Shown here: positions 1 through 58,832 of the stretch, in pieces | Layout: the number at the start of each line of letters is the position of its first letter | Position numbering within the stretch: the stretch's first letter is position 1 | Assembly: GCA_964597895.1 (NCBI GenBank) | Contig: CAZQZS010000001.1 | Span: 183,178-247,177, forward strand | Source of the DNA: an uncultured Candidatus Saccharibacteria bacterium | Lineage (GTDB): Bacteria > Patescibacteriota > Doudnabacteria > UBA920 | Length of the DNA stretch: 64,000 nt | Direction of reading: 5' to 3' | The notes under the pieces: generated by a model | The model's input: only the letters and a program-made list of their open reading frames with translations | What the model was told of the DNA's origin: nothing | Databases searched by the model: none | Program-made: the position numbers and the translations under genes

Positions 1-131
1 CCAGCGGCGAGGATACCTCCGGAAAGGGGAGGCAGACCGCGAAGCGGTCGTTGGAAAGGGTCCGGGTTAAGTCCAAACTTGGTTTGGACTGCTAACCGGT
101 GAAAACCCTTTCCGGGTTTCCCCCTCCAAGA
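1..131 (+). repeat. Family-A structured intergenic repeat, long variant, 5' end truncated by window edge; ends 6 nt before rplP ATG
   Basis: Near-identical to 4607-4756 (shares ggaaaggggaggcagaccgcgaagcggtcgttggaa plus 48-nt insert with gtccaaacttggtttggac hairpin and gaaaaccc/gggttt 3' hairpin ending cccctccaag). Confidence 0.8.
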
Positions 132-136
132 ACATT

Positions 137-541
137 ATGTTAATTCCAAAAAAGGTCAAACACCGCAAGCATCACCGCGGTCATAACAAGGGTAAAGCTA
201 CTTCCGGTAACACAATTGCTTTCGGCTCCTACGCTTTGAAGGCAATGGAAGGCCGCTTTGTTACTGCCCGCCAGATTGAAGCTGCTCGTCGCGCCATGAC
301 TCGTTCTGTACAGCGCGGTGGCAAAATCTGGATTCGTATTTTCCCAGACAAGCCGATTACCGATCACGGTAACGAATCTGTGATGGGTAGCGGTAAGGGT
401 GCGGTATCCCATTTCGTGGCTGTCGTAAAGAAAGGCCGTATTCTGTTTGAGATGGACGGTGTGAGCGAAGAAGCTGCTCGCGAAGCTATGCGCCTCGCAG
501 CGCACAAGTTGCCAGTAAAGTCCAAATTCCTAATTAAGTAA
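137..541 (+). CDS. rplP: 50S ribosomal protein L16
   Basis: 134 aa, [15 protein letters not shown]...; classic L16 N-terminus and operon position. Confidence 0.95.
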
Positions 542-542
542 T

Positions 543-725
543 ATGAAGTATTCATCATTATCCAAAAAGAAAGCCGAAGACATTCGTAAAGAATTGATTC
601 AGCTGCAAGAAAAGCGCGAGAACCTCAGAATGAAAGTGAAGCTGGGCCAGGTTAAGAATGCCCACGAACTTTCTGCGGTGCGCAAGGATATTGCTCGAAT
701 TCTAACTTACTTAAGAGCTAACTAA
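543..725 (+). CDS. rpmC: 50S ribosomal protein L29
   Basis: 60 aa, operon position between L16 and S17, K/E/R-rich helical protein. Confidence 0.85.
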   Translation: MKYSSLSKKKAEDIRKELIQLQEKRENLRMKVKLGQVKNAHELSAVRKDIARILTYLRAN

Positions 726-729
726 ACAT

Positions 730-972
730 ATGACTACAGCAACTAAGCAACAAATGACCGGCACTGTTATTTCCAACAAGATGGATAAAACAGTTGTGGT
801 AAAAGTAGATTTGGTAAAGCGTCACCCAAAGTATCACAAGAGCTATACCAAGTCCTACCGCTACAAAGCGCATGACGCAGACAACAGCTGTGAAATCGGA
901 GACAAAGTGGTAATTGAATCCATTCGTCCGATGAGCCGCGACAAGCGTTTCGCTGTTATTAAGAAAGTTTAA
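730..972 (+). CDS. rpsQ: 30S ribosomal protein S17
   Basis: 80 aa; GTVISNKMDKTVVVKV motif typical of S17. Confidence 0.9.
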   Translation: MTTATKQQMTGTVISNKMDKTVVVKVDLVKRHPKYHKSYTKSYRYKAHDADNSCEIGDKVVIESIRPMSRDKRFAVIKKV

Positions 973-984
973 TTAATTTATTCT

Positions 985-1093
985 CCGAGTCGTCTGGTCT
1001 TGCCAGCGACGAGGAAACCTCCGGAAAGGGGAGGCAGACCGCGAAGCGGTCGTTGGAAGGGGAAAACCCCTTCTGGGTTGTCCCCTCCAAAGA
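985..1093 (+). repeat. Family-A structured intergenic repeat, short variant, ends 8 nt before rplN ATG
   Basis: ccgagtcgtctggtcttgccagcgacgaggaaacctccggaaaggggaggcagaccgcgaagcggtcgttggaaggggaaaaccccttctgggttgtcccctccaaaga; three conserved hairpins. Confidence 0.8.
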
Positions 1094-1101
1094 ATACACC
1101 T

Positions 1102-1473
1102 ATGTTACAAATTCGTTCTTACATTAAAATTGCAGACAATACCGGCGCCAAGGTCGTCAACGTGTTTAGCGTGAACGGAAAGAATAACCGTCGCTTTGCT
1201 CGCGTTGGGGATGTTGTCGCGGGGTCTGTTCGCCAGGCTGCACCAAACGGTTCAGTTAAGAAAGGCGATAAGATTTACGCTGTGATTGTTCGGACCCGCA
1301 AGGAAATCCGCCGCAAGGACGGATCTTACATCCGCTTTGATGAGAACGCAGGTGTATTAGTAGATAAAGAAAAGGGCGAGCCAAAAGGCACCCGTATCTT
1401 TGGTCCAATCCCTCGCGAAGTTCGCGACGCAGGATTTACCAAGATTGCCTCTCTGGCGCCGGAAGTAATATAA
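1102..1473 (+). CDS. rplN: 50S ribosomal protein L14 (track ORF starts at 1000 inside the repeat; true start ATG at 1102)
   Basis: MLQIRSYIKIADNTGAK... canonical L14 N-terminus. Confidence 0.93.
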   Translation: MLQIRSYIKIADNTGAKVVNVFSVNGKNNRRFARVGDVVAGSVRQAAPNGSVKKGDKIYAVIVRTRKEIRRKDGSYIRFDENAGVLVDKEKGEPKGTRIFGPIPREVRDAGFTKIASLAPEVI

Positions 1474-1477
1474 ATCT

Positions 1478-1804
1478 ATGACTCAAGTAAAGCTCAAAAT
1501 TAAGAAAGGCGACACCGTAAAGGTATTGTCTGGCAAGGACAAAGGCAAGACTGGCAAAGTATTGCGCGTGCTTCCTAGTGTCCACAAGGTAGTCGTAGAG
1601 AACGTAAATGTTCACACTAAGTATGAACGTCCTCGTGGCACCCGCCAGCGCACTCCGCAGCAAATTTCCTTTGCAAGCCCAATGCCTGTTTCTAAAGTTA
1701 TGCTGGTTGATTCAAATTCCGGCAAGCCGACCCGCGTTGGATATCAGATTTTAGAAAACGGAACCAAGCAGCGCATCGCCAAGAAGAGCGGAAAAGCAGT
1801 CTAA
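1478..1804 (+). CDS. rplX: 50S ribosomal protein L24
   Basis: KIKKGDTVKVLSGKDKGKTGKV KOW motif. Confidence 0.92.
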   Translation: MTQVKLKIKKGDTVKVLSGKDKGKTGKVLRVLPSVHKVVVENVNVHTKYERPRGTRQRTPQQISFASPMPVSKVMLVDSNSGKPTRVGYQILENGTKQRIAKKSGKAV

Positions 1805-1816
1805 TAATATTTATTT

Positions 1817-2356
1817 ATGAATCGTTTACAAGAACAATATAATAAAGAGATTGCTCCAGCCTTGAAGGAAAAGTTCGGCTATACCAATGTAATGGCTGTG
1901 CCGAAAATCAAGCAGATCAATATCAATATCGGCGTTGGTAAGTACCTCAAAGACAATCGCTTTATGGAATCAATCCGCAAAGACCTGACAGCTTTGTCTG
2001 GTCAGAAGCCGGTTGAAACCAAAGCGCGCAAGTCTATCGCTGGATTCAAGATTCGTGATGGGCAGGTTGTCGGAATGACAGTCACCCTCCGCGGTCAGCG
2101 CATGTATGATTTTCTGGACAAGCTGATCAGTATCGGTCTTCCACGCGTGAAGGACTTCCGTGGTGTATCTAAGAAAGGCTTTGACCGCCGTGGTAATTAC
2201 AACCTCGGACTCAAGGAACATCTTGTTTTCCCGGAAATTTCCCAAGACGCGCTAGAACACATCTTTGGTCTGCAAATCACTATTGTTACTGACGCAGGCA
2301 AAGACGAGCCAGCTTACGAGCTGCTCAAAGCAATGAAGTTTCCATTTAAAGACTAA
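1817..2356 (+). CDS. rplE: 50S ribosomal protein L5
   Basis: 179 aa, NVMAVPKIKQININIGVG, L5 family. Confidence 0.93.
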   Translation: MNRLQEQYNKEIAPALKEKFGYTNVMAVPKIKQININIGVGKYLKDNRFMESIRKDLTALSGQKPVETKARKSIAGFKIRDGQVVGMTVTLRGQRMYDFLDKLISIGLPRVKDFRGVSKKGFDRRGNYNLGLKEHLVFPEISQDALEHIFGLQITIVTDAGKDEPAYELLKAMKFPFKD

Positions 2357-2378
2357 TCATTAAGTAACTAAATTTTCG

Positions 2379-2478
2379 CTTGGGCTAAGCCTGAGCCGAC
2401 CCGACGTAGTGTAACGAGGTGGGTCGCAGCGAAGGCGCCAGTTAAGCGAAAATTTAAGAGGAGTACTTGGCGGAGGGC
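2379..2478 (+). other. Structured element inside an unusually long (175 nt) rplE-rpsZ spacer; closed by perfect 12-bp stem aaattttcgctt/aagcgaaaattt
   Basis: Inverted repeat at 2379-2390 and 2467-2478 enclosing GC-rich inner hairpins (cgaccc...gggtcg). Confidence 0.5.
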
Positions 2479-2531
2479 GATAGGAATTAGCATTAGCTGA
2501 TACCGATAGCCCGGCAGACAAGTACGACGAT

Positions 2532-2726
2532 ATGGCTAAAAAGAGTTTAATCGCAAAAGCAAATCGCAGTTTGAAGAAACCGAAGTTCTCTTCTCGAGTA
2601 ATTCGGCGCTGTTTGAAGTGCGGCCGTAAAGCTGCTTTCATGAGAGATTTCTCTTTGTGCCGTATTTGTTTTAGAGAATTAGCTAGCCGCGGCGAAATCC
2701 CTGGCGTAGTAAAGGCCTCCTGGTAA
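2532..2726 (+). CDS. rpsZ: 30S ribosomal protein S14 type Z (zinc-binding, 4 Cys)
   Basis: 64 aa with CLKCGRK...CRICFRE. Confidence 0.9.
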
Positions 2727-2730
2727 AACT

Positions 2731-3123
2731 ATGTATACAGATCCAATTTCCGACATGTTAACAAGAATCCGCAATGGGCTTGCAGCAGGCAAGCAGGATT
2801 TGGTAATGCCTTACTCTAAGTACAAGCACAGCTTGGCTAAAGTATTGTTAGAAGAAGGCTTTCTCTCTGGCGTCAATGAGTTGCCTGGCCGCATCAAAAT
2901 GCTCCAGATCAATTTGAAGTATGATAACGGCGGTAGCCCGGTAATTTCTGGCATCAAGCGCGTTAGCACTCCAGGACAGCGCATTTACATGCCTGTCGGC
3001 AAGATTCCTCGCACTAACGGCGGCTACGGCGTGACAGTTGTTTCCACATCCAAAGGTCTAGTTACAGATAAGCGCGCCCGCAAGGATCGCATCGGCGGAG
3101 AAGTAATTTGCCAAATTTGGTAA
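2731..3123 (+). CDS. rpsH: 30S ribosomal protein S8
   Basis: DPISDMLTRIRNG N-terminus. Confidence 0.93.
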   Translation: MYTDPISDMLTRIRNGLAAGKQDLVMPYSKYKHSLAKVLLEEGFLSGVNELPGRIKMLQINLKYDNGGSPVISGIKRVSTPGQRIYMPVGKIPRTNGGYGVTVVSTSKGLVTDKRARKDRIGGEVICQIW

Positions 3124-3138
3124 AGGTTAATCAAATAT

Positions 3139-3720
3139 ATGAGTAGAGTAGGTAAAAAACCAGTCATTCTTCCAAACGGCATTACCGCCGAATTGAAAGA
3201 CAACACCCTGACCATCAAAGGTGGTAAAGGCAGTTTAACTATGACCGTTCATCCAAAAGTTACAGTTGAAATTAAGGATAACGAAGTCTCTGTTGATGTA
3301 GCAAAGAAAGAAGACAAGCGCGAAAAAGCTCTATGGGGCTTGTCCCGCGCTTTGGTTCAAAATATGGTTGATGGTCTGGAAAAAGGTTACAGCAAGCAGC
3401 TTGATGTAGTCGGTGTTGGTTTTAAAGCTGAAGTCCGCGGCAAAGATCTGGTTCTCAACTTAGGTTTCTCTCACCCAATTGAATTCCCAATTCCAGAAGG
3501 CATTGAAGTGAAGGCCGAAAAGGATCCAGCTAAAGTTACTATTCAGCAATATCAGACTACTATTACATTGACCGGTATTGATAAGCAGTTGGTTGGCCAG
3601 GTCGCAGCCAACATTCGCGAATTAAAGAAGCCAGAACCTTATAAGGGCAAGGGTATTCGTTATAGCGACGAAAACATCCTGCGCAAGGCTGGTAAAGTCG
3701 TTAAGGCGGTAGGTAAATAA
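3139..3720 (+). CDS. rplF: 50S ribosomal protein L6
   Basis: [15 protein letters not shown]... two-domain L6. Confidence 0.93.
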
Positions 3721-3721
3721 T

Positions 3722-4075
3722 ATGAACAAGATTCAGCATAAACAACTCAAGCATCAGCTCCGCAAGGGACGCGTGCGCAGCGTAGTTTCTGGGACCACTA
3801 GCCGGCCACGCCTGTCAGTGTTCCGCTCTAATGCTCACATCTCAGCCCAGATTATTGATGACGAAACCGGCAAGACCTTAGCATCCTCTTCTACTTCTAT
3901 TTTGAAAGCTTCTGGTAATAAAGTAGAGCAAGCAGTAGCAGTTGGTAAGGATATCGCTGCTAAAGCACAAGCTGCTGGCGTAAAGGCTGTCGTATTTGAC
4001 CGCGGCGGCTATAAGTATCATGGCCGCGTTAAAGCAATCGCTGATGGCGCTCGCGAAGCTGGCCTGCAATTTTAA
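3722..4075 (+). CDS. rplR: 50S ribosomal protein L18
   Basis: [20 protein letters not shown] motif. Confidence 0.92.
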
Positions 4076-4093
4076 TTCTAATTCTCAATAACT

Positions 4094-4594
4094 ATGGAAA
4101 AGAGATCTCGCAAACCGAATAATCGCACTCCGCAGCAGCCTCGTGAATTTGATCAGAAGGTTGTGGAAGTTAAGCGCGTCACCCGCGTAGTTGCTGGTGG
4201 TAAGCGCATGCGTTTCCGCGCTTTGGTGGTAATTGGTGACCACAAAGGCAAAGTTGGTATTGGTTTGAAAAAGGGGATGGACGTTACTGAGAGCGTCAAC
4301 AAAGCCGTGAATGCTGCAAAGAAGAACATGATTACTGTACCGATTGTTAACGATACGATTCCTCACGAAGTTAAAGTAAAGTACAAGTCCAGCAAACTCT
4401 TGATGATGCCTGCTCGTCCTGGTACTGGTGTAATTGCCGGTGGCGCTGTCCGTAGCGTTTTGGACATGGCTGGTATTAAGAACGTAATCAGCAAAATGGT
4501 TGGGTCTAACAATAAGACTAACAACGTTCGCGCTGCTTACGAAGCGTTCAAGATGATGCGCAGTAAAGAAGATATCTTGGCAGCCCGCAAATAA
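4094..4594 (+). CDS. rpsE: 30S ribosomal protein S5
   Basis: VTRVVAGGKRMRFRALVVIGD...; S5 dsRBD and C-terminal domain. Confidence 0.93.
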   Translation: MEKRSRKPNNRTPQQPREFDQKVVEVKRVTRVVAGGKRMRFRALVVIGDHKGKVGIGLKKGMDVTESVNKAVNAAKKNMITVPIVNDTIPHEVKVKYKSSKLLMMPARPGTGVIAGGAVRSVLDMAGIKNVISKMVGSNNKTNNVRAAYEAFKMMRSKEDILAARK

Positions 4595-4606
4595 CTAATT
4601 TAAACC

Positions 4607-4756
4607 CCGAGTCGTCTGGGTCTCCCAGCGACGAGGAAACTTAAGGAAAGGGGAGGCAGACCGCGAAGCGGTCGTTGGAAAGGGTCCGGGTTAAGTCCAA
4701 ACTTGATTTGGACTGCTAACCGGTGAAAACCCCTTCTGGGTTTTCCCCTCCAAAGA
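4607..4756 (+). repeat. Family-A structured intergenic repeat, long variant, occupying the position where rpmD (L30) normally sits; ends 5 nt before rplO ATG
   Basis: Near-identical to 1-131 over ~130 nt. Confidence 0.8.
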
Positions 4757-4761
4757 GATAT

Positions 4762-5196
4762 ATGATCAAGCTACACGATTTAAAACGTCATCCAAAATCA
4801 ACCAAGCGCCGCAAAGTTGTCGGTCGCGGTGTTGGTAGTGGACACGGTACCTATTCCACCCGCGGTGCCAAAGGTCAAAAGTCCCGCACCGGGCACTCCA
4901 AAACCCCAGCTCGCTTTGAAGGTGGCCGTCAACCGTTGATTCGCCAAGTGCCAAAGAGCCGCGGTTTTAAGAGCTTGCATGAAAGCGCGATGGCAGTGAG
5001 CGTTACTGCTCTCAATAAATTCGCCGACGGCGATGTTGTAACCATCGCAACCCTAAAGAAGGCAGGACTTATCCCAAGCACGGTTAATAGAGTCAAATTG
5101 CTCAAGGGTGATCTTAAGCGCAAGCTTACAGTCGGCGTCCCTGCGTCTGCGACAGCAAAAGAAGCTATCGAAAAAGCAGGCGGCAGCATTAAATAA
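4762..5196 (+). CDS. rplO: 50S ribosomal protein L15 (track ORF 4723 starts inside the repeat; true start 4762)
   Basis: MIKLHDLKRHPKSTKRRKVVGRGVGSGHG. Confidence 0.92.
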   Translation: MIKLHDLKRHPKSTKRRKVVGRGVGSGHGTYSTRGAKGQKSRTGHSKTPARFEGGRQPLIRQVPKSRGFKSLHESAMAVSVTALNKFADGDVVTIATLKKAGLIPSTVNRVKLLKGDLKRKLTVGVPASATAKEAIEKAGGSIK

Positions 5197-5241
5197 TAAA
5201 TTTTAAGATGCCATCTTTGCCTGTGACTAAGATGGCATCTA

Positions 5242-6534
5242 TTGTATAATACCAATATGAATAAACTCAGTTTAATTTGGAAAACTAAGGATTTGCGCTG
5301 GAAAATCACCATGGTGCTGATTCTCTTGCTGATGACCCGCGTTTTGGCGCACATCCCAATCCCTGGGGTTAGCGTAGAAGGTTTGCGGACTTTCTTTGAA
5401 AGCAACCAATTCTTGAATTTGTTGAATATTTTCTCTGGTGGTGGGCTGAGCAATTTTTCTATTGCTTTACTTGGTGTCGGTCCTTACATTACCGCATCTA
5501 TCATCATGCAACTCTTGGCCATGATCGTACCTTCACTGCAGGAATTGCAAAAGGAAAGCGGAGAAGCTGGTCGTACAAAAATCAACCAGTACACAAGATT
5601 CCTAACTATCCCATTAGCGATTTTGTCCGGATTCGGTACTATTCGCTTGCTGCAAAGCCAGGGCGGAGCAGAACTGCTCGGCGTGTTCACTCCTTTCCAG
5701 TGGTTTTTGACTTTGCTCGCGGTTACAGCCGGAACCATGCTAGTCATGTGGATCGGTGAAATTATTTCTGAGTACGGCATTGGTAATGGTATCTCTTTGG
5801 TAATTTTCGCAGGTATCGTTGCGCAGCTGCCAGCCAGCGCAGGCTCTTTGATTGAACTGTATGATCCAACTCAATTGCCGACAATTTTAGGTTTTGCTGC
5901 TGTCTCACTGCTGGTTATTGCTGGAGTGGTCTATGTAACTGAAGCTCAGCGGAATATTCCTGTATCTTATGCTAAACGCATGCAGGGTGAACGCCAGGTC
6001 GGCGGAGTCAGTTCTCATCTGCCTTTGCGTTTAAACCAAGCCGGTGTAATTCCAATCATCTTTGCCATTTCCTTGTTGCTGTTCCCAGCGATTATCGCCC
6101 AGTTCTTTGTGAACGCCAAAACTCCTTTGGTTGCAGAATGGGCGCAGAAAGCTATTGACTTCACTAATAATCAAGGGCTGTGGTACGGCGTGGCTTACTT
6201 CGTATTAGTGGTATTGTTCACCTATTTCTACACCAATATCGTGGTTAATCCTGATGATGTTTCCAAGAATATGCAGCGCAGCGGGGGCTTTATTCCTGGT
6301 ATTCGCCCGGGAAATCAGACAGCTGATTATCTTTATAAAGTGCTAAACCGCATTACCTTGCCTGGTTCGTTATTCCTTGGCACGATTGCTATTCTGCCGT
6401 TCTTGATGCAGACTTGGACAGGCACTCAAGCCTTAACATTCGGCGGTACCGGATTGCTTATTGTTGTATCGGTTGTCATTGAAAGTATCAAACAGGTTGA
6501 GGCACAACTTACAATGCACGATTACCAGAAATAA
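5242..6534 (+). CDS. secY: Preprotein translocase subunit SecY (start may be 5257)
   Basis: 430 aa, 10 TM segments, conserved plug and gate regions, operon position after L15. Confidence 0.93.
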   Translation: MYNTNMNKLSLIWKTKDLRWKITMVLILLLMTRVLAHIPIPGVSVEGLRTFFESNQFLNLLNIFSGGGLSNFSIALLGVGPYITASIIMQLLAMIVPSLQELQKESGEAGRTKINQYTRFLTIPLAILSGFGTIRLLQSQGGAELLGVFTPFQWFLTLLAVTAGTMLVMWIGEIISEYGIGNGISLVIFAGIVAQLPASAGSLIELYDPTQLPTILGFAAVSLLVIAGVVYVTEAQRNIPVSYAKRMQGERQVGGVSSHLPLRLNQAGVIPIIFAISLLLFPAIIAQFFVNAKTPLVAEWAQKAIDFTNNQGLWYGVAYFVLVVLFTYFYTNIVVNPDDVSKNMQRSGGFIPGIRPGNQTADYLYKVLNRITLPGSLFLGTIAILPFLMQTWTGTQALTFGGTGLLIVVSVVIESIKQVEAQLTMHDYQK

Positions 6535-6556
6535 AATTATTTTTGATTGCAAATTT

Positions 6557-6582
6557 AAACCCCCGCTGCGCGGGGGTTTTTG
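6557..6582 (+). terminator. Rho-independent terminator after secY
   Basis: cccccgctgcgcggggg followed by tttttg. Confidence 0.8.
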
Positions 6583-6589
6583 TATGTTC

Positions 6590-6672
6590 GACCGAGCTTG
6601 CCGCTCAAGCCGATGGGCTACGTTTCGCTTTCCGAAACTGGGCCCAGAGCCTTTCGCTTAGCAAGCTCGGTC
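6590..6672 (+). other. 83-nt structured element closed by perfect 12-bp stem gaccgagcttgc/gcaagctcggtc with nested inner hairpins
   Basis: Inverted repeats seen directly; inner gtttcg-ctttc-cgaaac and gggc/gccc pairs. Confidence 0.5.
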
Positions 6673-6705
6673 TCTAAAAGGGAGTTAGTAGATTCATGTG
6701 TTTTA

Positions 6706-6714
6706 TGGTATAAT
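6706..6714 (+). promoter_or_regulatory. Extended -10 promoter TGgTATAAT; ATG 9 nt downstream (leaderless transcript predicted)
   Basis: tggtataat at 6706-6714, ATG at 6724. Confidence 0.55.
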
Positions 6715-6723
6715 TTGGTCACT

Positions 6724-7047
6724 ATGGAACAAGAAAATAAAGAATTTCCTCAACATTTGGAACAACCCAATCATGAGTTTGCCGCACCAGAAAACTCTCC
6801 CATGCAAGAAACCGAAGGGTTCATTGTTGAGCTGCAGGTCACTGAAGCGGAAAAGCAAGAAATAGCCGAACAGCTGGCAGAACAGCAGCCGGTTGCTCCT
6901 ACCATACAGGAAGTAAAGGCAGCTGCAGTAGAACGCGCCCAGCAACAGGAAGAAATTGATAAAGCTCACGAGCATTTGCAAAAAGATAATGACATAGAAA
7001 CCAGCGGCGATGCCTATGAAATGATCAACGACTTAATGAATAACTAA
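6724..7047 (+). CDS. Small acidic hypothetical protein (108 aa; track ORF 6580 is an upstream extension)
   Basis: Start placed after the promoter; E/Q-rich, low complexity. Confidence 0.5.
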   Translation: MEQENKEFPQHLEQPNHEFAAPENSPMQETEGFIVELQVTEAEKQEIAEQLAEQQPVAPTIQEVKAAAVERAQQQEEIDKAHEHLQKDNDIETSGDAYEMINDLMNN

Positions 7048-7091: not shown

Positions 7092-9650
7092 ATGTTATTT
7101 GGATTTGATATCAGCACGATACTTATAGCCACACTACTACTAGCGGTTTTAGTAGTAGTCTTTGTATTGGCGGCAATGTATTACATTCACAGATTTTGGT
7201 ATTACAAGCATGTGATTTTGCCTCGCACCAAAAATTGGGTGTTCTTGGAAATTCAAATGCCCAAAGACAATAGCGACGACAAAGAACGAACCTTGCGCGA
7301 TGAGGAAAAGAAAAAACTGATTGCTGTTGCAGAGCAGCTCTACACAACTTTGTCTGGCATAAGCCATGAGAACTGGTTTTGGCAGCCCAAGGATTACATC
7401 AGTTTTGAGATTGCCTGTTCGGCAAAAAAGATTTCCTTTTATATTAACTGTCCGAAGCATCTCCAGGATTTAATCGAAAAGCAGATACAAGCGCAGTATC
7501 CGCACGCATTTATTGAAGAGATTAAAGGCTATAACCCTTTTCCTAAAGCCGGCGAGCTGGCAGCCGCAGAGCTGCAGCTTAACAAGCCGTATGTTTACCC
7601 TTTGCGAACTTACGAAGACATGGAGTCTGATCCGCTTAATGCGCTGACTAACGCCATGTCAAAGTTATCAGAACAAGATGGCGCAGCTATTCAGATGATT
7701 TTGTATCCAGCCGGAACTCACTGGCAGCTCAAACCTCGTCACATGGCCTTGGAAATTCAGCAAGGCAAAAATCCAAATACCGTAGCGCAAAGCGCTAGCG
7801 GCCGGTTTGCGCGTGAGGTCGGCACTGGACTTAAGACCAGCGTTATGGGCAGCAGCAAGCCCAGCGCCGATCAAGCTCAGATGCGCACTGATTTAAGTGG
7901 CACTTATTCCGCTATCAACTTAACCCCGATGCAGCAGGAAATGGTAAAGCGCTTTGAAGAGAAAGCCAGCCGCCCAGGGTTCTTTACGAATATTAGAATT
8001 GTGACAGCTTCAGAAGTGCCGGGTCAGGCGCGCTTGCATCTGCAAAACATTACGGCGTCATTTTTGGAATACAATATGGCTCCGTTTAATGGTTTTCGCA
8101 TTAAGTCGCGCAAGAAGAAACGGATCGTCAAAGATTATATTTTCCGCATTTACCGCCGCTACGGGCGTAAAATGATTCTGAATACCGAAGAGTTGGCCAG
8201 TATCTGGCATTTACCAACTCCATACCTGGAAACGCCAAATATCAAATGGCTGTTGTCTAAAAAGGCTCCGGCACCAGTGAATTTAGCCGAAGAAGGCTTA
8301 CTGCTCGGCCGCAACGTTTACCGCGGGGTGGAAACGAAGATTCATATCGCCAAAGAAGATCGCCGGCGCCACATGTATATTCTGGGCCGAACCGGTGTTG
8401 GTAAAACCGAAATCATGAAGTATATGGCCGTTCAAGATATCGCCAACGGAGAAGGACTTTGTATTATTGATCCGCACGGCGATTTTATAGAAGACGTTTT
8501 GCCTCATATTCCTAAGCACCGTGCCGAGGATGTAATTTTATTTGACCCTTCAGATACGGAGCGACCACTGGGACTGAACATGCTTGAGGTGAATAGGGAA
8601 GAGCAAAAGGATTTTGCGGTTCAGGAGATGATTTCTATTTTTTACAAGCTGGTAACCGACCCGGCCATGCTTGGTCCAATGTTTGAGCATAACATGCGTA
8701 ACGCAATGCTCACGCTCATGGCCGACAAGGAGCATCCGGGCACGATTGTAGAGATTCCTAGAATCTTTACAGACATGGAATTTCAAAAGTACAAAGTTTC
8801 CAAAGTTGCCGATCCAGTCGTTCGCGCGTTTTGGGAAAAAGAAATGGCTAAAACTTCTGACTTCCATAAATCAGAAATGCTCGGTTACTTGATTTCTAAA
8901 GTTGGCAGGTTCGTAGAGAATAGCATGATGCGCAATATTGTCGGGCAGGCGAAAAGTTCGTTCAACTTCCGCGACATCATGGATAGCCAAAAAATCTTGC
9001 TCGTGAATCTGGCTAAGGGCAAGATTGGGGAGATGAATGCCAAGCTGCTAGGTTTGATTATTGTCTCTAAGATTCAAATGGCGGCATTGAGCAGAGCTGA
9101 TCAGCCCGAAGATCAGCGCCGAGATTTTTACTTGTACGTTGATGAGTTTCAGAATTTCATCACTGATGCTTTTTCGTCAATCTTAAGCGAAGCGCGCAAA
9201 TACAAACTCAACTTAATTATTGCCCATCAATTTTTGGCGCAGCTTCAGCAAGCAGCAGGCGCGCAGGGCGCGGCCAGCCAAGACTTGCGCGATGCGGTAT
9301 TCGGCAATACTGGCTCCATGTTAAGTTTTCGCATCGGTGTTGAGGATGCCGAAGTAATGGCCAAAGAGTTTGCGCCAACTTTTAACGAGTTTGATTTGCT
9401 CAACATAGAACGCTATAACGCGTTTGTGAAGCTGATGGTGAATGGTTCTGCTTCTAAGCCGTTCAATATGTCGACTTATCCTTTACCCAAAGCCATAGCC
9501 GAACAAAAGCAGACGGCTGAGGCAATCAGACAGCTTTCTAGGCTAAAATATGGACGAGCTCAAGCCGAGGTAGAAGCGGGGATTTTACGGGCTAGTCAGA
9601 TTGCAGATATGATGGCAGCCGGGACAGCCACTACCGAAAAAACCTTATAA
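7092..9650 (+). CDS. Membrane-anchored P-loop ATPase, type IV coupling protein-like (VirD4/TraG family), with unusually long 400-aa pre-Walker-A region
   Basis: N-terminal TM helix; Walker A LGRTGVGKTE; DPHGDF; Walker B YLYVDEFQNF; SEARKYKLNLIIAHQFLAQL resembles T4CP RKYG/Q..QL C-terminal motif. Confidence 0.65.
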   Translation: MLFGFDISTILIATLLLAVLVVVFVLAAMYYIHRFWYYKHVILPRTKNWVFLEIQMPKDNSDDKERTLRDEEKKKLIAVAEQLYTTLSGISHENWFWQPKDYISFEIACSAKKISFYINCPKHLQDLIEKQIQAQYPHAFIEEIKGYNPFPKAGELAAAELQLNKPYVYPLRTYEDMESDPLNALTNAMSKLSEQDGAAIQMILYPAGTHWQLKPRHMALEIQQGKNPNTVAQSASGRFAREVGTGLKTSVMGSSKPSADQAQMRTDLSGTYSAINLTPMQQEMVKRFEEKASRPGFFTNIRIVTASEVPGQARLHLQNITASFLEYNMAPFNGFRIKSRKKKRIVKDYIFRIYRRYGRKMILNTEELASIWHLPTPYLETPNIKWLLSKKAPAPVNLAEEGLLLGRNVYRGVETKIHIAKEDRRRHMYILGRTGVGKTEIMKYMAVQDIANGEGLCIIDPHGDFIEDVLPHIPKHRAEDVILFDPSDTERPLGLNMLEVNREEQKDFAVQEMISIFYKLVTDPAMLGPMFEHNMRNAMLTLMADKEHPGTIVEIPRIFTDMEFQKYKVSKVADPVVRAFWEKEMAKTSDFHKSEMLGYLISKVGRFVENSMMRNIVGQAKSSFNFRDIMDSQKILLVNLAKGKIGEMNAKLLGLIIVSKIQMAALSRADQPEDQRRDFYLYVDEFQNFITDAFSSILSEARKYKLNLIIAHQFLAQLQQAAGAQGAASQDLRDAVFGNTGSMLSFRIGVEDAEVMAKEFAPTFNEFDLLNIERYNAFVKLMVNGSASKPFNMSTYPLPKAIAEQKQTAEAIRQLSRLKYGRAQAEVEAGILRASQIADMMAAGTATTEKTL

Positions 9651-14798: not shown

Positions 14799-14934
14799 TT
14801 TGGCCAATTTCTTTGTCGTCAGCTCCGCTACTCGTTCACCGTAACTTTCATTACGACTCACTCGTTGCTCGCTGACTCCTGGCTCGCGATGGTCGGGCTT
14901 TGCCCGACCAAGCTCGTGTCGAACTTGACTCAAA
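14799..14934 (+). repeat. Family-C structured intergenic repeat, copy 1, with extra ggtcgggc-ttt-gcccgacc hairpin
   Basis: Shares ttggccaatttctttgtc...ctcgttcaccgtaacttNcattacgRctcactcgKtgctc...gaacttgRctcaaa with 17303-17400. Confidence 0.8.
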
Positions 14935-15752: not shown

Positions 15753-17288
15753 ATGGCAGTTTACTACCAGACTTATAGACCCCAGAATTTTAGCGAGGTT
15801 GTTGGTCAAGAACCAATCGTCAAAGCGCTTCTTTCAGCTTCAAAACTTGGCAAAATTGGCCATGCTTATTTATTTTGCGGAAGCCGGGGAGTGGGCAAGA
15901 CAACTTTGGCCAGAATTCTTGCCAAAGCTGCGAACTGCCCAAATTTAAAAGATGGTGATCCTTGCGGTGTTTGCGAAGTTTGTACTGCGATAGCGCGCGG
16001 CGCTTTTTTGGATGTTGTAGAAATTGATGCCGCCTCTCATACGGGAGTAGATAACATCCGCGAGCTTATAGAGCGCATCAATTTTGGCCCGACTCAAGGC
16101 AAAACCAAAGTTTTTATTATTGATGAAGTCCACATGCTTTCTAAGGCAGCCTTTAACGCTTTGTTAAAGACTTTAGAGGAACCGCCTTCTCATGCCTTAT
16201 TTATTTTAGCGACTACCGATTTAGACAAAGTGCCAGATACGATAGTTTCGCGCACTCAGCGGTTTGATTTTAGAAAGATTACAGCACCACAGATTTTAGA
16301 AACTTTAAAACGTATTGTAAAAAAGGAAAAATTAAAGCTGGAAGAATCAGCTTTACAAATTATCGTAGATAACAGCGAAGGCGGTTTGCGCGATGCGCTC
16401 TCGCAGTTATCCATGATTGCTGTGTTGGATAAAACTTCCAGCGAAGCGGACATTCACTTGCTGCTCGGAACTACTTCTCGGGCTACGGTAGTTTCGCTTT
16501 TGGATTTCGTTGCATCTGGTACGACCTCAGCTATGCCGGAATTTTTTGCCAAACAAACGGAATTGAATTTTGACCCGAGTAGCTTTACCAGAAAAGTCTT
16601 GCAAGTTCTTCAGGAACTCTTGGAAGACAGCTTGGCGAAAACCGGCGGCGACCATGAACTAGCCGGCAAGTTTTTGTTACCACAGCTGCTTCACGTAATG
16701 CGCCTGTATTTGCGCGCCTATAAAGAAATAGAGCGGGCTTTAAGCCCAGAACTTCCTTTATTACTGGCTAGTATAGAGGCGGCCTTATACATGTCGGGAG
16801 GTCGCGGCGCTTCCCAGAACGGCAACCAGGCAACCAAGCCCGCTGCAGAGTCTGCTGCTTCTCCAGTTAATCAAGTTCAAATTCAGCAACCTGTTGAACC
16901 TGTTGTTATTGATGCAGTTGTCGCCAGCGAGGCAACTGGCAAACCACCGGTATTAGAAACAGCCCAGGTTAAGAGCTGGTGGCCTAGCTTAGTGGATGAG
17001 ATGCGCAAAGTAAATGGACCATTGGCAACGTTGCTCCGCAATTGTCCGATTGCTTCGGTGGAGGGCAATAAGGTTGTGGTGGCAGTAAAATATTTATTTC
17101 ATAAAGAACAGCTTGAAAGCACAAAAATCCGGTCGTTTATTAATGAGCACTTAAGCAGCCAGGCCGGTGGCCCAGTTATGTTTTCGGCTACTATTGATAA
17201 GCGTTTAACCGTGACCGAGCAAATCGGCGACACCGCAACTGCAGTGTCGGATGCATTGCGGATCTTTGGCGGGGAAGTCATAGAGTAG
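15753..17288 (+). CDS. dnaX: DNA polymerase III subunit gamma/tau
   Basis: AAA+ clamp-loader motifs GSRGVGKTT, DEVHML, SRTQRFDF; zinc module CGVCEVC. Confidence 0.93.
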   Translation: MAVYYQTYRPQNFSEVVGQEPIVKALLSASKLGKIGHAYLFCGSRGVGKTTLARILAKAANCPNLKDGDPCGVCEVCTAIARGAFLDVVEIDAASHTGVDNIRELIERINFGPTQGKTKVFIIDEVHMLSKAAFNALLKTLEEPPSHALFILATTDLDKVPDTIVSRTQRFDFRKITAPQILETLKRIVKKEKLKLEESALQIIVDNSEGGLRDALSQLSMIAVLDKTSSEADIHLLLGTTSRATVVSLLDFVASGTTSAMPEFFAKQTELNFDPSSFTRKVLQVLQELLEDSLAKTGGDHELAGKFLLPQLLHVMRLYLRAYKEIERALSPELPLLLASIEAALYMSGGRGASQNGNQATKPAAESAASPVNQVQIQQPVEPVVIDAVVASEATGKPPVLETAQVKSWWPSLVDEMRKVNGPLATLLRNCPIASVEGNKVVVAVKYLFHKEQLESTKIRSFINEHLSSQAGGPVMFSATIDKRLTVTEQIGDTATAVSDALRIFGGEVIE

Positions 17289-17302: not shown

Positions 17303-17400
17303 TTTGGCCAATTTCTTTGTCACCAGTTCCGCTCCTCGTTCACCGTAACTTTTATTACGGCTCACTCGGTGCTCACTGGTTTCGCGAACTTGGCTCAAAA
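17303..17400 (+). repeat. Family-C structured intergenic repeat, copy 2
   Basis: See 14799-14934; conserved hairpin cgtaa-cttttat-ttacg at 17344-17359. Confidence 0.8.
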
Positions 17401-22817: not shown

Positions 22818-22978
22818 TCGCTCATTTGGCTTCAGTCGGAAGTAAATTCCAACCTTCAGCCAAATATCGCCCCTTTGGGGTTTAACCAATTGCTTCGTTA
22901 TTTTCCTCGGAACCCTGTCATCGTAGCTTTACTACGACTCCAGAGTTCCTCGGAAAATGCCTCGCACTTGGCTAAACG
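22818..22978 (+). repeat. Family-B structured intergenic repeat, copy 1 (contains terminator-like gcccctttggggttt and conserved hairpin cgtag-cttta-ctacg)
   Basis: Shares ~80 nt near-identity with 33974-34040 and a core related to family C. Confidence 0.8.
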
Positions 22979-33973: not shown

Positions 33974-34136
33974 TCGCTCATTTGGCTTAAGTTGTAAGTA
34001 AATTCCAACTTTCAGCCAAATATCGCCCCTTCGGGGTTTAGTCAATTTCATTGTCATCGGCTTCCGTTACTCATTCATCGTACTATTAAGTACGACTCAT
34101 TCGTTACTCAGCCGATTCCTCGAGCTTGACTAAACG
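33974..34136 (+). repeat. Family-B structured intergenic repeat, copy 2 (gccccttcggggttt; hairpin cgtac-tattaa-gtacg)
   Basis: See 22818-22978. Confidence 0.8.
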
Positions 34137-41408: not shown

Positions 41409-41511
41409 TTATGATCTATTCGCGGATCTGGTTTTCCCAGGCCGAGAATCTCCAAGGAAGGGTGAGCTGTTGAGAGAAACACTTTTCAGGTCTCTTTCTT
41501 AATATTTTTTT

Positions 41512-41883
41512 ATGACTCCTGGTCAACTCATTTCCAAAACAGTACTCATGCAGCTATTTTTGGTGATCATCAAGATCATCTTTTTTGGTTTCTTAAACAT
41601 TGAGTTGTTATCAATTCTTATAGTCTATTATCTGCTTTTGGCAGCTTGTGCCATCGCTTTGGTTCGTCGCTTCGGCCCGCTTAATTACTTTGAGGCATTT
41701 CTGGCCATGGGGTTATGGTTAATACTCAGTTTAGTAATGGATTACTTAATTACAGCTTCCATTATCGGCAGGGAAGTGTTCAGTGATTATCATTTTTGGA
41801 TTTCATACGCCGTAGTACTCTTGGCTATACTGATCTTTCACAAAAAACAGCATGTGGAAATGCGCAAAGCTTTAAAGAAGTGA
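41512..41883 (+). CDS. Hypothetical polytopic membrane protein (123 aa)
   Basis: 4 hydrophobic helices. Confidence 0.5.
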   Translation: MTPGQLISKTVLMQLFLVIIKIIFFGFLNIELLSILIVYYLLLAACAIALVRRFGPLNYFEAFLAMGLWLILSLVMDYLITASIIGREVFSDYHFWISYAVVLLAILIFHKKQHVEMRKALKK

Positions 41884-49326: not shown

Positions 49327-49431
49327 TGGAGAGGGCGCCGGGATTTGAACCCGGACCTTGGCCTAAGTTGGCCTGCCTCTGGGGAGGTACAGTTTTCAAG
49401 ACTGTTGCTTTTTCCATTAAGCTACGCCCCC
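49327..49431 (-). tRNA. tRNA-Ser(UGA)-like, 105 nt, with abnormal 34-nt variable region
   Basis: Acceptor GGGGGCG/CGCCCTC, D arm GCTT-AATGGAAA-AAGC, anticodon arm ACAGT-CTTGAAA-ACTGT, T arm CCGGG-TTCAAAT-CCCGG, encoded CCA. Confidence 0.7.
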
Positions 49432-50012: not shown

Positions 50013-50855
50013 CTATTGGTGAACCAGCCGATTTAAAAGCACCAAGAAAATCGGAACAGGAGAGCGAGAGTGAGTCAGACGAAAGCTAAACTCGTTTAAG
50101 TAGTCCTGCAAATATTTGGGCGAGACTCTATGATACGTGCCATCGATAGACCGCTTGATTTGGCTAAAGAAGCCCTCAACGCTGTTGGTGTGAGTCCAGC
50201 CATTAACATACTGCTTACTAGAGTGGTTCACAGAGCTATGACCATAACCCTTTAGGCTCTTGCGGTTATACACCGAAGCACCGTCAGTCATAATCGCACT
50301 GCCGGCCTCAACCTCGTTATGGATTAACGGAATGGTATTGAACTGCTTTATTTTCTGCATTACCACAGCTTTAGCACTACCGCCACGCTGAACCAAACCT
50401 AAAACCTTTGGAACACCCGCCCTAGAGCGTGGTGTTTTCATTTTCTCCAAGTAGGCTTCATCCACCTCAACCACTCCGCTTAGTTTTAAGTCGCTCAAAT
50501 CCATAAGGGAGCGGATTTGTTTAGCGATACGCCAAGCAGTTTTGTAGGTTACACCCAAGTCTCTTTCCAACTCTTTGCCGGAAACTCCATTACGAGAGTT
50601 GGCGAACTTGTAAATGGCGAAGAACCACAAGACTAAATCTGTTTCTGATTTATGGAAGATAGTCCCAGCAGTGGGGTGAATTTGATAAGCACAGCTAGCG
50701 CAAGCCCACGCTTTGCGTTTCTTAATCCTGTGCCAACTAGACTTCCCACAGTTAGGGCAAGGGAACTGATAGCCATAACGATACTTAAAGATATACTCCA
50801 AGCAAGCGTCATTATCTGGGAAGTCTTTTTTGAAGTCTTTTATTGTGTATTTCAT
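50013..50855 (-). mobile_element. IS1595-family (ISXO2-like) transposase gene; IS boundaries not determined
   Basis: N-terminal Zn-ribbon CPNCG...CASC; DDE region with DEAY, TDGASVY, HSSVNHS..YVNG.HTNSVEGFFSQIKR. Confidence 0.85.
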
Positions 50856-51148
50856 ACATTAAAGTTAATTATATTTTGAGAGTAACTCCATACTTACTTG
50901 TTGTCAAGGGATAGTCGGGCGGTTAAGTGTGCATAACTAGGGAGCTATTTCGGAGAATCATCAAAACCTTTTTAATTAAGAGGGTTTTTTTAGTTTTGAG
51001 GTGAGGTATATAAATTGAAAAATGGGTCAGAGTGGGGTATACTGACTTCAAGTGGAATGGAGTGGGGAAAAGTGGGGATAAGTGGGTGGATAAGTGGACA
51101 ACTCAAATCATTCAGATTTCTGAAACTAACAGTAATAGACGCGAAGAC

Positions 51149-51246
51149 ATCTGGCTTTGCCAGGGTCTGAGCACCCAAGGAAAGGGGAGGCAGGAGCGAA
51201 GCGACGTTGGAAGGAGAAAACCCTTCCCGGGTTTTCTCCTCCAAAC
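51149..51246 (+). repeat. Family-A structured repeat, divergent copy, ending at the mraZ ATG
   Basis: tctggctttgccag...ggaaaggggaggcag...ttggaaggagaaaaccc...gggttttctcctccaaa; compensatory changes in hairpins. Confidence 0.7.
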
Positions 51247-51684
51247 TGTCTTATGTTTATCGGTGAATTTCAAGCATCAATTGATGATAAGGCCCGCGTG
51301 GCAATCCCAGCCAAGTTCCGCAGTTCTTTGAAATCAAAGGTCGTAGTAACCAGAGGGTTGGATAACTCCTTGGTTCTGTACACATTAGACGAATGGAAGA
51401 AGCTTGCCGAGAAGGTGGCTAGTCTCCCAATTTCTACTGCCAACACGCGCGCTTTTTCTCGTCTGATGCTTGCAGGAGCAATGGATTGCGATATTGATAA
51501 GCAGGGTCGCATTGTCATTCCAGGCTACCTCAAGGAATTTGCCAAGATTTCCAAAAAGCTTGTTTTCGCCGGTCTTTATAACCGCGTGGAAATTTGGAGC
51601 GACGAAGCTTGGCAAAAATACAAAACACAAACAGAAAAACAAAGCAATCAAATTGCCGAACAATTGGGTGATCTAGGAGTATAA
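51247..51684 (+). CDS. mraZ: Transcriptional regulator MraZ (track ORF 51157 starts inside repeat)
   Basis: MFIGEFQASIDDKARVAIPAKFR and second SpoVT/AbrB-like repeat. Confidence 0.9.
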   Translation, partial: CLMFIGEFQASIDDKARVAIPAKFRSSLKSKVVVTRGLDNSLVLYTLDEWKKLAEKVASLPISTANTRAFSRLMLAGAMDCDIDKQGRIVIPGYLKEFAKISKKLVFAGLYNRVEIWSDEAWQKYKTQTEKQSNQIAEQLGDLGV

Positions 51685-58545: not shown

Positions 58546-58620
58546 TGGCTGGGGTACCAGGATTCGAACCTGGGAATGAGCGGACCAAAACCGCTTGCCT
58601 TACCACTTGGCTATACCCCA
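58546..58620 (-). tRNA. tRNA-Gln(UUG)
   Basis: Cloverleaf: acceptor TGGGGTA/TACCCCA, anticodon arm AGCGG-TTTTGGT-CCGCT, T arm CCAGG-TTCGAAT-CCTGG, G73+CCA. Confidence 0.85.
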
Positions 58621-58696
58621 ATATATAATTTTCTGATTCGTTTGCCTGTGTCCGCTCTGAGCGGACCTCTATAATATAACGGCTACTGGCGTAAGC

Positions 58697-58731
58697 CTAT
58701 GGCGCTTGCCTTACCACTTGGCTATACCCCA
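58697..58731 (-). pseudogene. Duplicated 5' half of tRNA-Gln (~30 nt identical to 58593-58620)
   Basis: gcttgccttaccacttggctatacccca repeated 104 nt downstream. Confidence 0.6.
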
Positions 58732-58832
58732 ATAATTTTCAATTAGCCTTGATATGATACCGAAAATAGTGGTTTTTGGCAAGAATGCGCGCGTTTTTGT
58801 ATGGTATAATTTACCTATATTTAACAAGATTT

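Follow-up and report, generated by a model that had tools for sequence, protein, structure and literature searches.

Does the sequence that lies between the ribosomal protein genes rpsE and rplO of an uncultivated Patescibacteria genome, in the place that rpmD (L30) holds in most bacteria, have anything to do with the absence of L30? We examined this locus in a 64-kb stretch of DNA, called here the window and numbered on the + strand, in which a first-pass annotation had pointed to a 150-nt structured repeat at the rpmD position. The repeat was confirmed at 4607-4756 on the + strand, and we found that it is one copy of a family of dispersed structured elements of 105-210 nt in uncultivated Patescibacteria (Candidate Phyla Radiation, CPR), for which we use the name family A. 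Family A is apparently an undescribed structured RNA-type motif with covariation-supported helices, and the sequence comparisons indicate that its fold is under selection on the sense strand. The L30 aspect adds nothing new, loss of L30 being an established CPR trait; the value lies in the element family, which is conserved across divergent Patescibacteria, spreads in genomes and ends a few nucleotides before the starts of core genes.

The rpsE-rplO spacer and the L30 position

The start of the window is occupied by the S10/spc ribosomal protein (r-protein) cluster, on the + strand. The rpsE-rplO spacer measures 167 nt and contains the element on the same strand; scores are those of the family-A covariance model (CM), and ORF stands for open reading frame:

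4094-4594, + strand: rpsE (S5), ORF with TAA stop at 4592-4594, with homologues in the 80 loci described below
4607-4756 (150 nt), + strand: family-A long variant in the rpsE-rplO spacer; CM 69.1 bits, E 4e-13; fold z -3.1
4762-5196, + strand: rplO (L15), ORF with ATG at 4762, mapped by tblastn
from 5257, + strand: secY, ORF downstream of rplO

With S5 as the query and one genome per species, we recovered 80 loci (coded L001 and so on) from metagenome-assembled genomes labelled Patescibacteria, 'Candidatus Doudnabacteria' or 'uncultured Candidatus Saccharibacteria', with S5 sequences 66-95% identical to the window rpsE product. Both rpsE and rplO were present in 79 related loci, which formed the basis of the spacer comparison, a test that had been set beforehand. 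In 79 out of 79 loci rpsE was directly followed by rplO, and the spacers measured 3-260 nt (median 79 nt; 30 of them were <=40 nt), with sequences that were unrelated between lineages and often comprised inverted repeats. None of the 79 spacers contained family A, according to nhmmer and then the covariance model. The suggestion that the location of the element at exactly this locus is meaningful was therefore not sustained: family A is absent there in all 79 relatives and present before many other genes. In the nearest relatives, L001 and L002 (S5 95% and SecY 96-98% identical, DNA upstream of secY 92-98% identical), the spacer held unrelated palindromes of the GTCATCC...GGATGAC type instead.

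Each of the 12 spacers from rplP to secY was at least 60 nt long in 3-55 of the loci, and the expanded spacers of L003 held repeat families of that genome's own, two of which were also found elsewhere in the window. One dispersed repeat family was located at window positions 14799-14874, 17303-17378 and 34038-34113, and another at 22818-22901 and 33974-34057; copies of those two families lay in r-protein operon spacers of L003 (8431-8530 and 9815-9915), L005 (2245-2344) and L086 (2199-2279). The presence of two further families in these spacers shows that several repeat families move through the spacers of the clade, and the r-protein operon spacers are turnover hotspots. We also observed a 175-nt rplE-rpsN spacer (window 2357-2531) with long inverted repeats, AAATTTTCGCTT...AAGCGAAAATTT, that had no similar sequence in the related loci; the spacers of L002, L003 and L005 measured about 138 nt at this position.

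L30 was searched with tblastn in the window, the 64 kb of the source genome covered here, and 106 related loci (1.6 Mb in total), with the L30 proteins of E. coli, B. subtilis and T. thermophilus as queries. There was no match (best E 0.21), while three control proteins, L29, S17 and S14, were readily detected by the same procedure (E 1e-9 to 7e-15); the absence of L30 from the spc cluster, as proposed from the sequence, was thus borne out. The rpsE-rplO spacer showed no protein-level similarity to rpmD/L30 with any of the three queries and hence is no remnant of an L30 gene. Frequent lack of L30 among CPR bacteria was already on record in an earlier preprint (bioRxiv 10.1101/2022.01.07.475337), in keeping with the first-pass annotation. 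L30 is missing across the clade whether the spacer is filled or not. Since family-A copies are gained and lost fast and no relative has them at the corresponding r-protein sites, the overlap with the 'L30 slot' is incidental. The copy at 4607-4756 was acquired recently and in this lineage only, in a part of the genome where spacers turn over fast.

Fold, copies and gene context of family A

The same layout was found in every copy: hairpin P1, a linker of 7-10 nt, the tract GGAAAGGGGAGGCAG, hairpin P3, one to few unpaired nucleotides and hairpin P4. In the rpsE-rplO copy these parts are placed as follows:

4607-4636, + strand: P1 hairpin, CC-GA-GUCG-U-CUGGG / CCCAG-CGAC-GA-GG, with a tandem G.A internal loop; from folds
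4645-4659, + strand: purine tract GGAAAGGGGAGGCAG, conserved, predicted single-stranded, containing a GGAGG like that of a Shine-Dalgarno (SD) sequence
4659-4673, + strand: P3 hairpin, GACCGC-GAA-GCGGUC; from folds
4675-4753, + strand: P4 long hairpin, UUGGA-AA-GGG[insert]GAAAACCCC ... GGGUUUUCCCCUCCAA
4685-4724 (40 nt), + strand: optional module, CCGG-GUUAA-GUCCAAAC-UUGA-UUUGGAC-UGCUAA-CCGG; from the alignment of long and short copies

P1 was variable across the family and often had a tandem G.A internal loop, P3 varied in length and sequence and was closed by G-C followed by tandem G.A or Watson-Crick pairs, and the tract was invariant in 19 out of 24 aligned copies. P4 followed the outline UUGGA-A-GGGGAAAACCC ... 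GGGUUUUCCCC-UCCAA with a variable apex (its arms are also written GUUGGAAGGGGAAAACCC...GGGUUUUCCCCUCCAA), and its 3' strand, ...UUUUCCCCUCCAA, ended 4-11 nt upstream of the start codon; in the rpsE-rplO copy, the base of P4 stops 8 nt before the rplO ATG.

The 40-nt module defines the long variant: a GGUUAA-stem-GCUAACC hairpin is put into the P4 5' strand and generates a three-way junction. The insertion had been given as 48 nt with a perfect hairpin. Relative to the short variant it comprises about 40 nt, and the nested hairpin is real; it is perfect in the copy at 1-131 (GTCCAAAC-TTG-GTTTGGAC), whereas in the copy at 4607-4756 (GTCCAAAC-TTGA-TTTGGAC) one G>A change leaves 7 bp. The GGTTAA...GCTAACC motif was seen only within family A (twice in the window, once in L005 and twice in L097); L097 carries the module twice, and the inner stem differs in L097 and L012. 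To the question whether the module occurs independently, no occurrence outside family A was found in the sequences searched; it is an optional sub-domain and not an independent element.

We scanned metagenome contigs with a pattern that demanded only the tract and the start of P4, which yielded 26 stretches, about 22 of them with the full family-A architecture; the covariance model then gave 24 family-A copies, each with E <=6e-6. On the alignment of the 24 copies, 88.7% of the cells were paired and double-sided changes were seen at 15 out of 25 pairs, whereas shuffled alignments averaged 7.9 +/- 1.2 such pairs and none of 500 reached the observed value; the alignment is model-derived and fitted to P1 and P4, and their covariation counts lean towards the model. 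The covariation score was 0.253, compared to 0.080 after shuffling and <=0.084 when the registers were slid by 1-3 columns. Double-sided changes were found family-wide at all of the inner four pairs of P1 and in 5 pairs of P4, in which 96.6% of the cells were paired. P3 showed them in 6 out of 6 pairs although it was absent from the search and covariance model.

The sense strand gave the more stable hairpin in 15 copies versus 0 for P3 and in 16 versus 7 for P1, and the tandem G.A motifs would read U.C on the opposite strand. The mraZ copies of the window and L098, which are orthologous, differed by a compensatory double substitution in P1 and another in P4, while their upstream flanks could not be aligned and the MraZ N-termini were nearly identical. 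These compensatory substitutions, together with the G.U and tandem G.A pairs that are specific to the sense strand, point to selection on the sense-strand fold. Two further pairings were tried and rejected: a long-range GGGGAGG:CCCCUCC helix, whose strands are not antiparallel complements (P4 is the covarying helix), and a pairing of the tract with the P4 3' strand, which is possible and had no covariation support (69 of 500 shuffles equalled it).

The further copies in the window, with the gene order of the cluster, are:

r-protein gene order, + strand: rplP 137-541, rpmC, rpsQ 730-972, rplN 1102-1473, rplX, rplE, rpsN, rpsH, rplF, rplR, then rpsE
1-131, + strand: family-A long variant before rplP (ATG 137), with P1 cut by the window edge; CM 41.8 bits, 5'-truncated
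about 985-1090, + strand: family-A short variant between rpsQ and rplN (ATG 1102); CM 107.4 bits
about 51140-51247, + strand: more divergent family-A short variant at the 3' end of the mraZ 5' untranslated region (UTR; ATG 51253); CM 106.9 bits
41413-41514, + strand: possible degenerate fifth copy, with a P1-like hairpin and the tract-like GGAAGGGUGAG, no P3, ending at the ATG at 41512

The second long variant, at 1-131, had also been noticed in the first-pass annotation and was confirmed, with 93% identity to the copy at 4607-4756. All four window copies are on the + strand, their folds beat shuffled sequence (z -3.1 to -5.2), and nhmmer recovered them at E 1e-29 to 1e-43, far past chance; the candidate at 41413-41514 was not significant (CM 18.9 bits, E 0.87; fold z +0.2). 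The P1 and P3 of the rplN copy were identical to those of the rplO copy, and the identity of P1 and P3 among the three r-protein-operon copies marks these as recent intragenomic duplicates.

Eighteen of the 24 copies were in sense orientation with the ATG of a real ORF 4-11 nt (median 8) after ...CCAA:

genes after the 18 sense copies: rplP, rplN, rplO, rpsH, rplJ, rpsB, secY (three copies), mraZ (three copies), nusA (two copies), dcd, an MBOAT protein, a ligase-like gene and a membrane protein
other six copies: antisense in L022 and L062; no following ORF in L096; ambiguous in L092; cut by the contig end in L093; in frame within ksgA

Among the relatives, family A preceded secY in L005, L012 and L033, and L005 also had a long variant with the same module before rpsH. 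The two antisense copies lay between rplN and rplX (L022) and after secY (L062). The in-frame copy is a 123-nt stretch (41 codons, no stop) within an intact ksgA/rsmA ORF, upstream of the ...FKVVANIPYY motif, and was found on two independent contigs (L082 2757-2879 and L090 354-476), with a Pfam RrnaAD match that spans the insertion. The L088 copy was located on an 867-kb contig whose dCTP deaminase was closest (57-59%) to proteins named from Doudnabacteria, Kerfeldbacteria, Colwellbacteria and Gottesmanbacteria; family A therefore reaches past the immediate clade of the window.

At secY, the window and seven relatives (L001-L004, L006, L008 and L019) had TATAAT only 6-8 nt before the ATG, as part of a conserved hairpin plus (T)GTATAAT (window 5197-5259), which implies a leaderless or nearly leaderless secY mRNA. 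In L005, L012 and L033 the element was found exactly between this -10 box and the ATG; it would thus make up nearly all of the secY 5' UTR, and since secY is essential its translation must be possible with the element in place. At mraZ, the element fills the last 110 nt of the window leader, downstream of a -10-like TATACT (51038-51043, within 51030-51100) and five AAGTGG boxes that start at 51050, 51060, 51070, 51080 and 51092 (spacing 10, 10, 10 and 12 nt), an array that looks like a MraZ operator. The promoter and the five boxes were kept in L110-L113 with a plain AU-rich leader and no family A. A search for MraZ homologues with look-ups of their contigs gave relatives without the element at mraZ, and among eight MraZ homologues with N-terminal extensions only P0068 gave a hint of it. 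Copies are thus gained and lost quickly.

Beside the mraZ copies, two observations were made. L098 has, at about 1810-1960, two tandem copies of a repeat of about 47 nt, GGATTATCCGG(G)ATCCACATGTAG.GTAGCAGTTATCCATCCCGGAAA, upstream of its family-A copy and in the place of the MraZ boxes of the window. In the window, a divergent IS1595-family transposase (DDE_Tnp_IS1595 and zinc ribbon; 50013-50855, - strand) lies upstream of the mraZ promoter region.

Other features of the window are:

7092-9650: 852-aa protein with TrwB/TraG/VirD4-type coupling-protein and HerA-like domains, shortly after secY, where the usual adk-map-infA-rpmJ genes do not come next
49330-49431, - strand: 102-nt tRNA by Rfam (62 bits), anticodon loop CUUGAAA (UGA, Ser-type), with an unusually long 31-nt variable region; not reported by ARAGORN
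58592-58623 and 58703-58734: perfect 32-nt direct repeat, the first copy overlapping the 5' part of tRNA-Gln (58546-58620, - strand), possibly a partial duplication of the tRNA that an integration event left behind

A proposed portable leader module and its alternatives

Where family A precedes a gene it lies on the coding strand of that gene, and the element would therefore be transcribed in the leader or intercistronic RNA. We tentatively favour the reading, to which we give a little less than an even chance, that family A is a duplicating cis-acting 5'-leader RNA module affecting translation initiation or mRNA stability. The mechanism that we infer from sequence features is the following. 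The element would act in cis as a portable 5'-leader module, its exposed extended SD-like tract GAAAGGGGAGG would serve as a standby or STAB-SD-like (stabilising SD) site to which the 16S rRNA 3' end binds, and the hairpins that flank the tract would be protective. P4 would set the 30S-tract complex beside the AU-rich, SD-less start region. The outcome would be higher or altered translation initiation and/or shielding of the downstream mRNA segment from 5'-end-dependent decay, and this effect would be the reason why new copies are kept when they land a short way before an ATG in sense orientation.

The translation-start context in the window is consistent with such a module. An SD-like motif was found at about 13 out of 65 window genes (around 20%), and since some of these are perfect GGAGG the anti-SD is probably functional. 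The element-bearing genes had no other SD: the usual SD position is occupied by the pyrimidine strand of P4 with CCUCC, sequestered in the hairpin, and the exposed tract is the strongest SD-like sequence near these genes. TATAAT was found 8-9 nt before the ATG in further window genes, such as those starting at 15753 and 55271. Translation start on the many SD-less or apparently leaderless genes of CPR bacteria, which are uncultivated, is little understood, and a modular leader between the secY -10 box and the ATG offers a testable handle on it.

Other roles for the position before the start codon were considered and rejected. The terminator scan reported none at the family-A copies, where P4 is followed by CCAAAGAGAUAU, which is no terminator-like site and does not agree with an intrinsic terminator (GC-rich hairpin and U run). 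A conserved upstream ORF was rejected because the frame relative to the ATG differs among the three window copies; the conceptual translation of the element gave no match in a protein search. A pure 5'-terminal stabiliser does not fit at mraZ, where P1 comes about 100 nt after the conserved promoter and the MraZ boxes.

Several points weigh against the leader module. In sequence, the SD-like tract is 60-110 nt away from the ATG, and with P3 and P4 folded the distance through space would still exceed normal SD spacing. About 100 nt separate the likely mraZ transcription start from the element, which means that P1 is not a 5'-terminal hairpin there, and a sigma-70 scan showed no convincing promoter upstream of the rplN and rplO copies. 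Close relatives manage without the element at each locus examined, and any benefit must therefore be dispensable. Part of the conservation seen in the tract and in the P4 5' strand comes from the pattern with which the metagenome copies were gathered. Finally, the antisense copies of L022 and L062, the gene-less copy of L096 and the in-frame ksgA copies show a scatter such as a selfish mobile element would leave.

The strongest alternative takes up that scatter: family A would be a purely selfish, non-autonomous mobile repeat, like REP (repetitive extragenic palindromic) sequences, MITEs (miniature inverted-repeat transposable elements) or Rickettsia palindromic elements, without host function. 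The conserved fold would then be the target of a mobilising enzyme, possibly on single-stranded DNA, and copies at start codons would merely be tolerated in compact genomes. We consider this unlikely on balance, though a good deal agrees with it: the patchy presence among close relatives, the recent duplicates with identical stems in one genome, the 123-nt copy in frame in an intact ksgA ORF as in Rickettsia palindromic elements, the antisense copies and the one without a downstream gene, the unrelated repeat families that occupy the same operon spacers in relatives, and the IS1595-family transposase at 50013-50855 that adjoins the mraZ copy. No other transposase was noticed among the window ORFs, no systematic screen for a RAYT gene having been made. 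Against a purely selfish repeat, terminal inverted repeats and target-site duplications were not seen in the sequence, the sense bias is 18:2, and the distance to the ATG is a tight 4-11 nt even where more than 250 nt of non-coding sequence lie upstream (mraZ). Moreover, the core is kept across hosts with S5 only about 70% identical and in a CPR lineage with a Dcd <=64% identical to anything else, and the compensatory changes in orthologous copies indicate selection after insertion. The categories 'mobile' and 'functional' are not exclusive.

A bolder form of the portable leader draws on a symmetry between the tract and P4. Read backwards, the tract (GG-A-GGGG-AAA) equals the P4 purine strand (GG-A(A)-GGGG-AAAA), with a mirror match of 10 contiguous positions in the standard sequence, and the strand order (third strand, P3 as loop, purine strand, loop, pyrimidine strand) is that of a fold-back triplex. 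In L033, three to four G-to-A/U changes in the tract parallel G-C to A-U changes in P4, and in L022 one G-to-U change in the tract parallels one G-C to A-U change in P4. The mirror rule is broken at 1 position by the window mraZ copy, L062 is mixed, and independent changes are few overall; the alternative helix between the tract and the P4 3' strand suits the mraZ copy and fails at 2-3 positions in L022 and L033. It is doubtful that family A is a novel type of portable leader for translation initiation, a self-propagating RNA module that recruits 30S via the exposed extended-SD tract, with the tract held against P4, possibly as the intramolecular triplex to which the mirror symmetry and the parallel changes in L033 and L022 point, and that gives a leader to leaderless or SD-less CPR genes, secY among them.

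A regulated leader (a riboswitch, protein-binding leader or thermosensor that tunes growth-related genes together) seems quite unlikely. Here the pyrimidine strand would pair either with the tract or with the P4 5' strand in competition, or the tract would be the binding site of a factor. An extremely conserved single-stranded tract between covarying helices is aptamer-like, an alternative helix of 8 bp between the tract and the P4 3' strand is possible in 92% of the cells, and the downstream genes are mostly related to growth or housekeeping (r-proteins, nusA, secY, mraZ and dcd). However, the alternative pairing has no covariation support (the 69 of 500 shuffles mentioned above) and is broken at 2-3 positions in L022 and L033, no metabolite is common to the gene set, there is neither an SD nor a terminator as expression platform, no Rfam family matches, and the element is dispensable at each locus in close relatives, unlike a conserved regulon.

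We regard as improbable an RNA-processing ('punctuation') signal, in which RNase III, RNase P or an enzyme of that sort would cleave P4 or the entire fold just before the next cistron. RNase III sites of phage T7 are a precedent for the splitting of polycistronic transcripts, and such a signal agrees with the intercistronic position in the r-protein operon, with a helix of at least 16 bp that ends 8 nt before the ATG and with a genome that already has leaderless or near-leaderless starts, in which a short processed leader could function; it leaves unexplained the copies that make up the entire 5' UTR where the gene is monocistronic or comes first (secY), as well as the conserved single-stranded tract, P1 and P3. 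Last, a tie to the vacant rpmD position, either as an rpmD remnant or as an RNA compensating for L30 loss, is scarcely credible: it has co-location in this one genome in its favour, and it is refuted by the 79 out of 79 relatives that lack both L30 and the element in the spacer, next to the lack of L30 similarity and the presence of family A at many other loci.

Family A among known systems

A structured element at this locus had been noted from the start as undocumented, and our searches agree for the element: no Rfam family matches it. With Rfam 15, only two tRNAs reached the gathering score in the window, and at E <=10 positions 1-7000 gave only noise matches, none of them on the element in sense orientation. 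We found no description of such a CPR leader or repeat in the literature searched; an element described in a preprint on intergenic features belongs to Bacteroidota and is not family A. The pattern scan of viral contigs gave three chance matches only.

Riboswitches and r-protein leaders share with family A the covarying helices, the conserved junction nucleotides and the position directly upstream of start codons. In contrast to both, family A stands before members of at least 12 unrelated gene families, is missing at the orthologous loci of close relatives, and has no recognisable expression platform and no Rfam match even at E <=10. A riboswitch was rejected given the heterogeneous gene set, the alternative pairing without covariation and the lack of an SD or terminator to sequester. 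An r-protein autoregulatory leader was rejected given that the element precedes many genes (rplP, rplN, rplO, rpsH, rplJ, rpsB, secY, mraZ, nusA, dcd and further ones) and is absent at the orthologous sites of relatives.

With intramolecular triple helices of the mirror-repeat (H-DNA) type and the ENE type of RNA, family A shares the mirror sequence and the strand order, but on the sense strand it would be of the purine motif (R.R-Y), which to our knowledge is poorly documented for RNA. The STAB-SD of Bacillus thuringiensis cry3A, the subject of work by Agaisse and Lereclus in 1996, is reportedly an SD-like GAAAGGAGG that lies a long way before the start codon and pairs with the 16S 3' end. 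In family A, GAAAGGGGAGG with a perfect GGAGG likewise lies tens of nucleotides upstream of the ATG, predicted single-stranded and flanked by hairpins, a likeness of sequence in which 16S binding and stabilisation are putative; unlike the STAB-SD, family A has a P4 with CCUCC beside the ATG, is multi-copy and is not always near the transcript 5' end.

Small dispersed structured repeats include REP/BIME, MITEs such as Correia/NEMIS, and Rickettsia palindromic elements. Family A resembles these in being about 100-200 nt long, multi-copy, strongly folding and co-transcribed in intergenic and operon spacers, in its variable presence between close relatives and, as regards the Rickettsia elements, in occasional in-frame copies within ORFs. 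It differs from these repeats in lacking terminal inverted repeats, target duplication and a REP-like GTAG head. A MITE was rejected, as the element ends (5' CCGAGUCG..., 3' ...CCCCUCCAAAG) are not complementary, and the comparison of filled and empty sites at secY, rplN and rplO showed no duplicated flank. A single REP palindrome measures 20-40 nt, whereas family A comprises three hairpins over 105-210 nt. The sense bias, the distance of 4-11 nt to the ATG and the core conserved across hosts with compensatory changes also set family A apart from dispersed repeats. Family A can be placed in the wide category of dispersed structured repeats or leader RNA motifs, outside any named family, and bears on how small structured repeats become domesticated.

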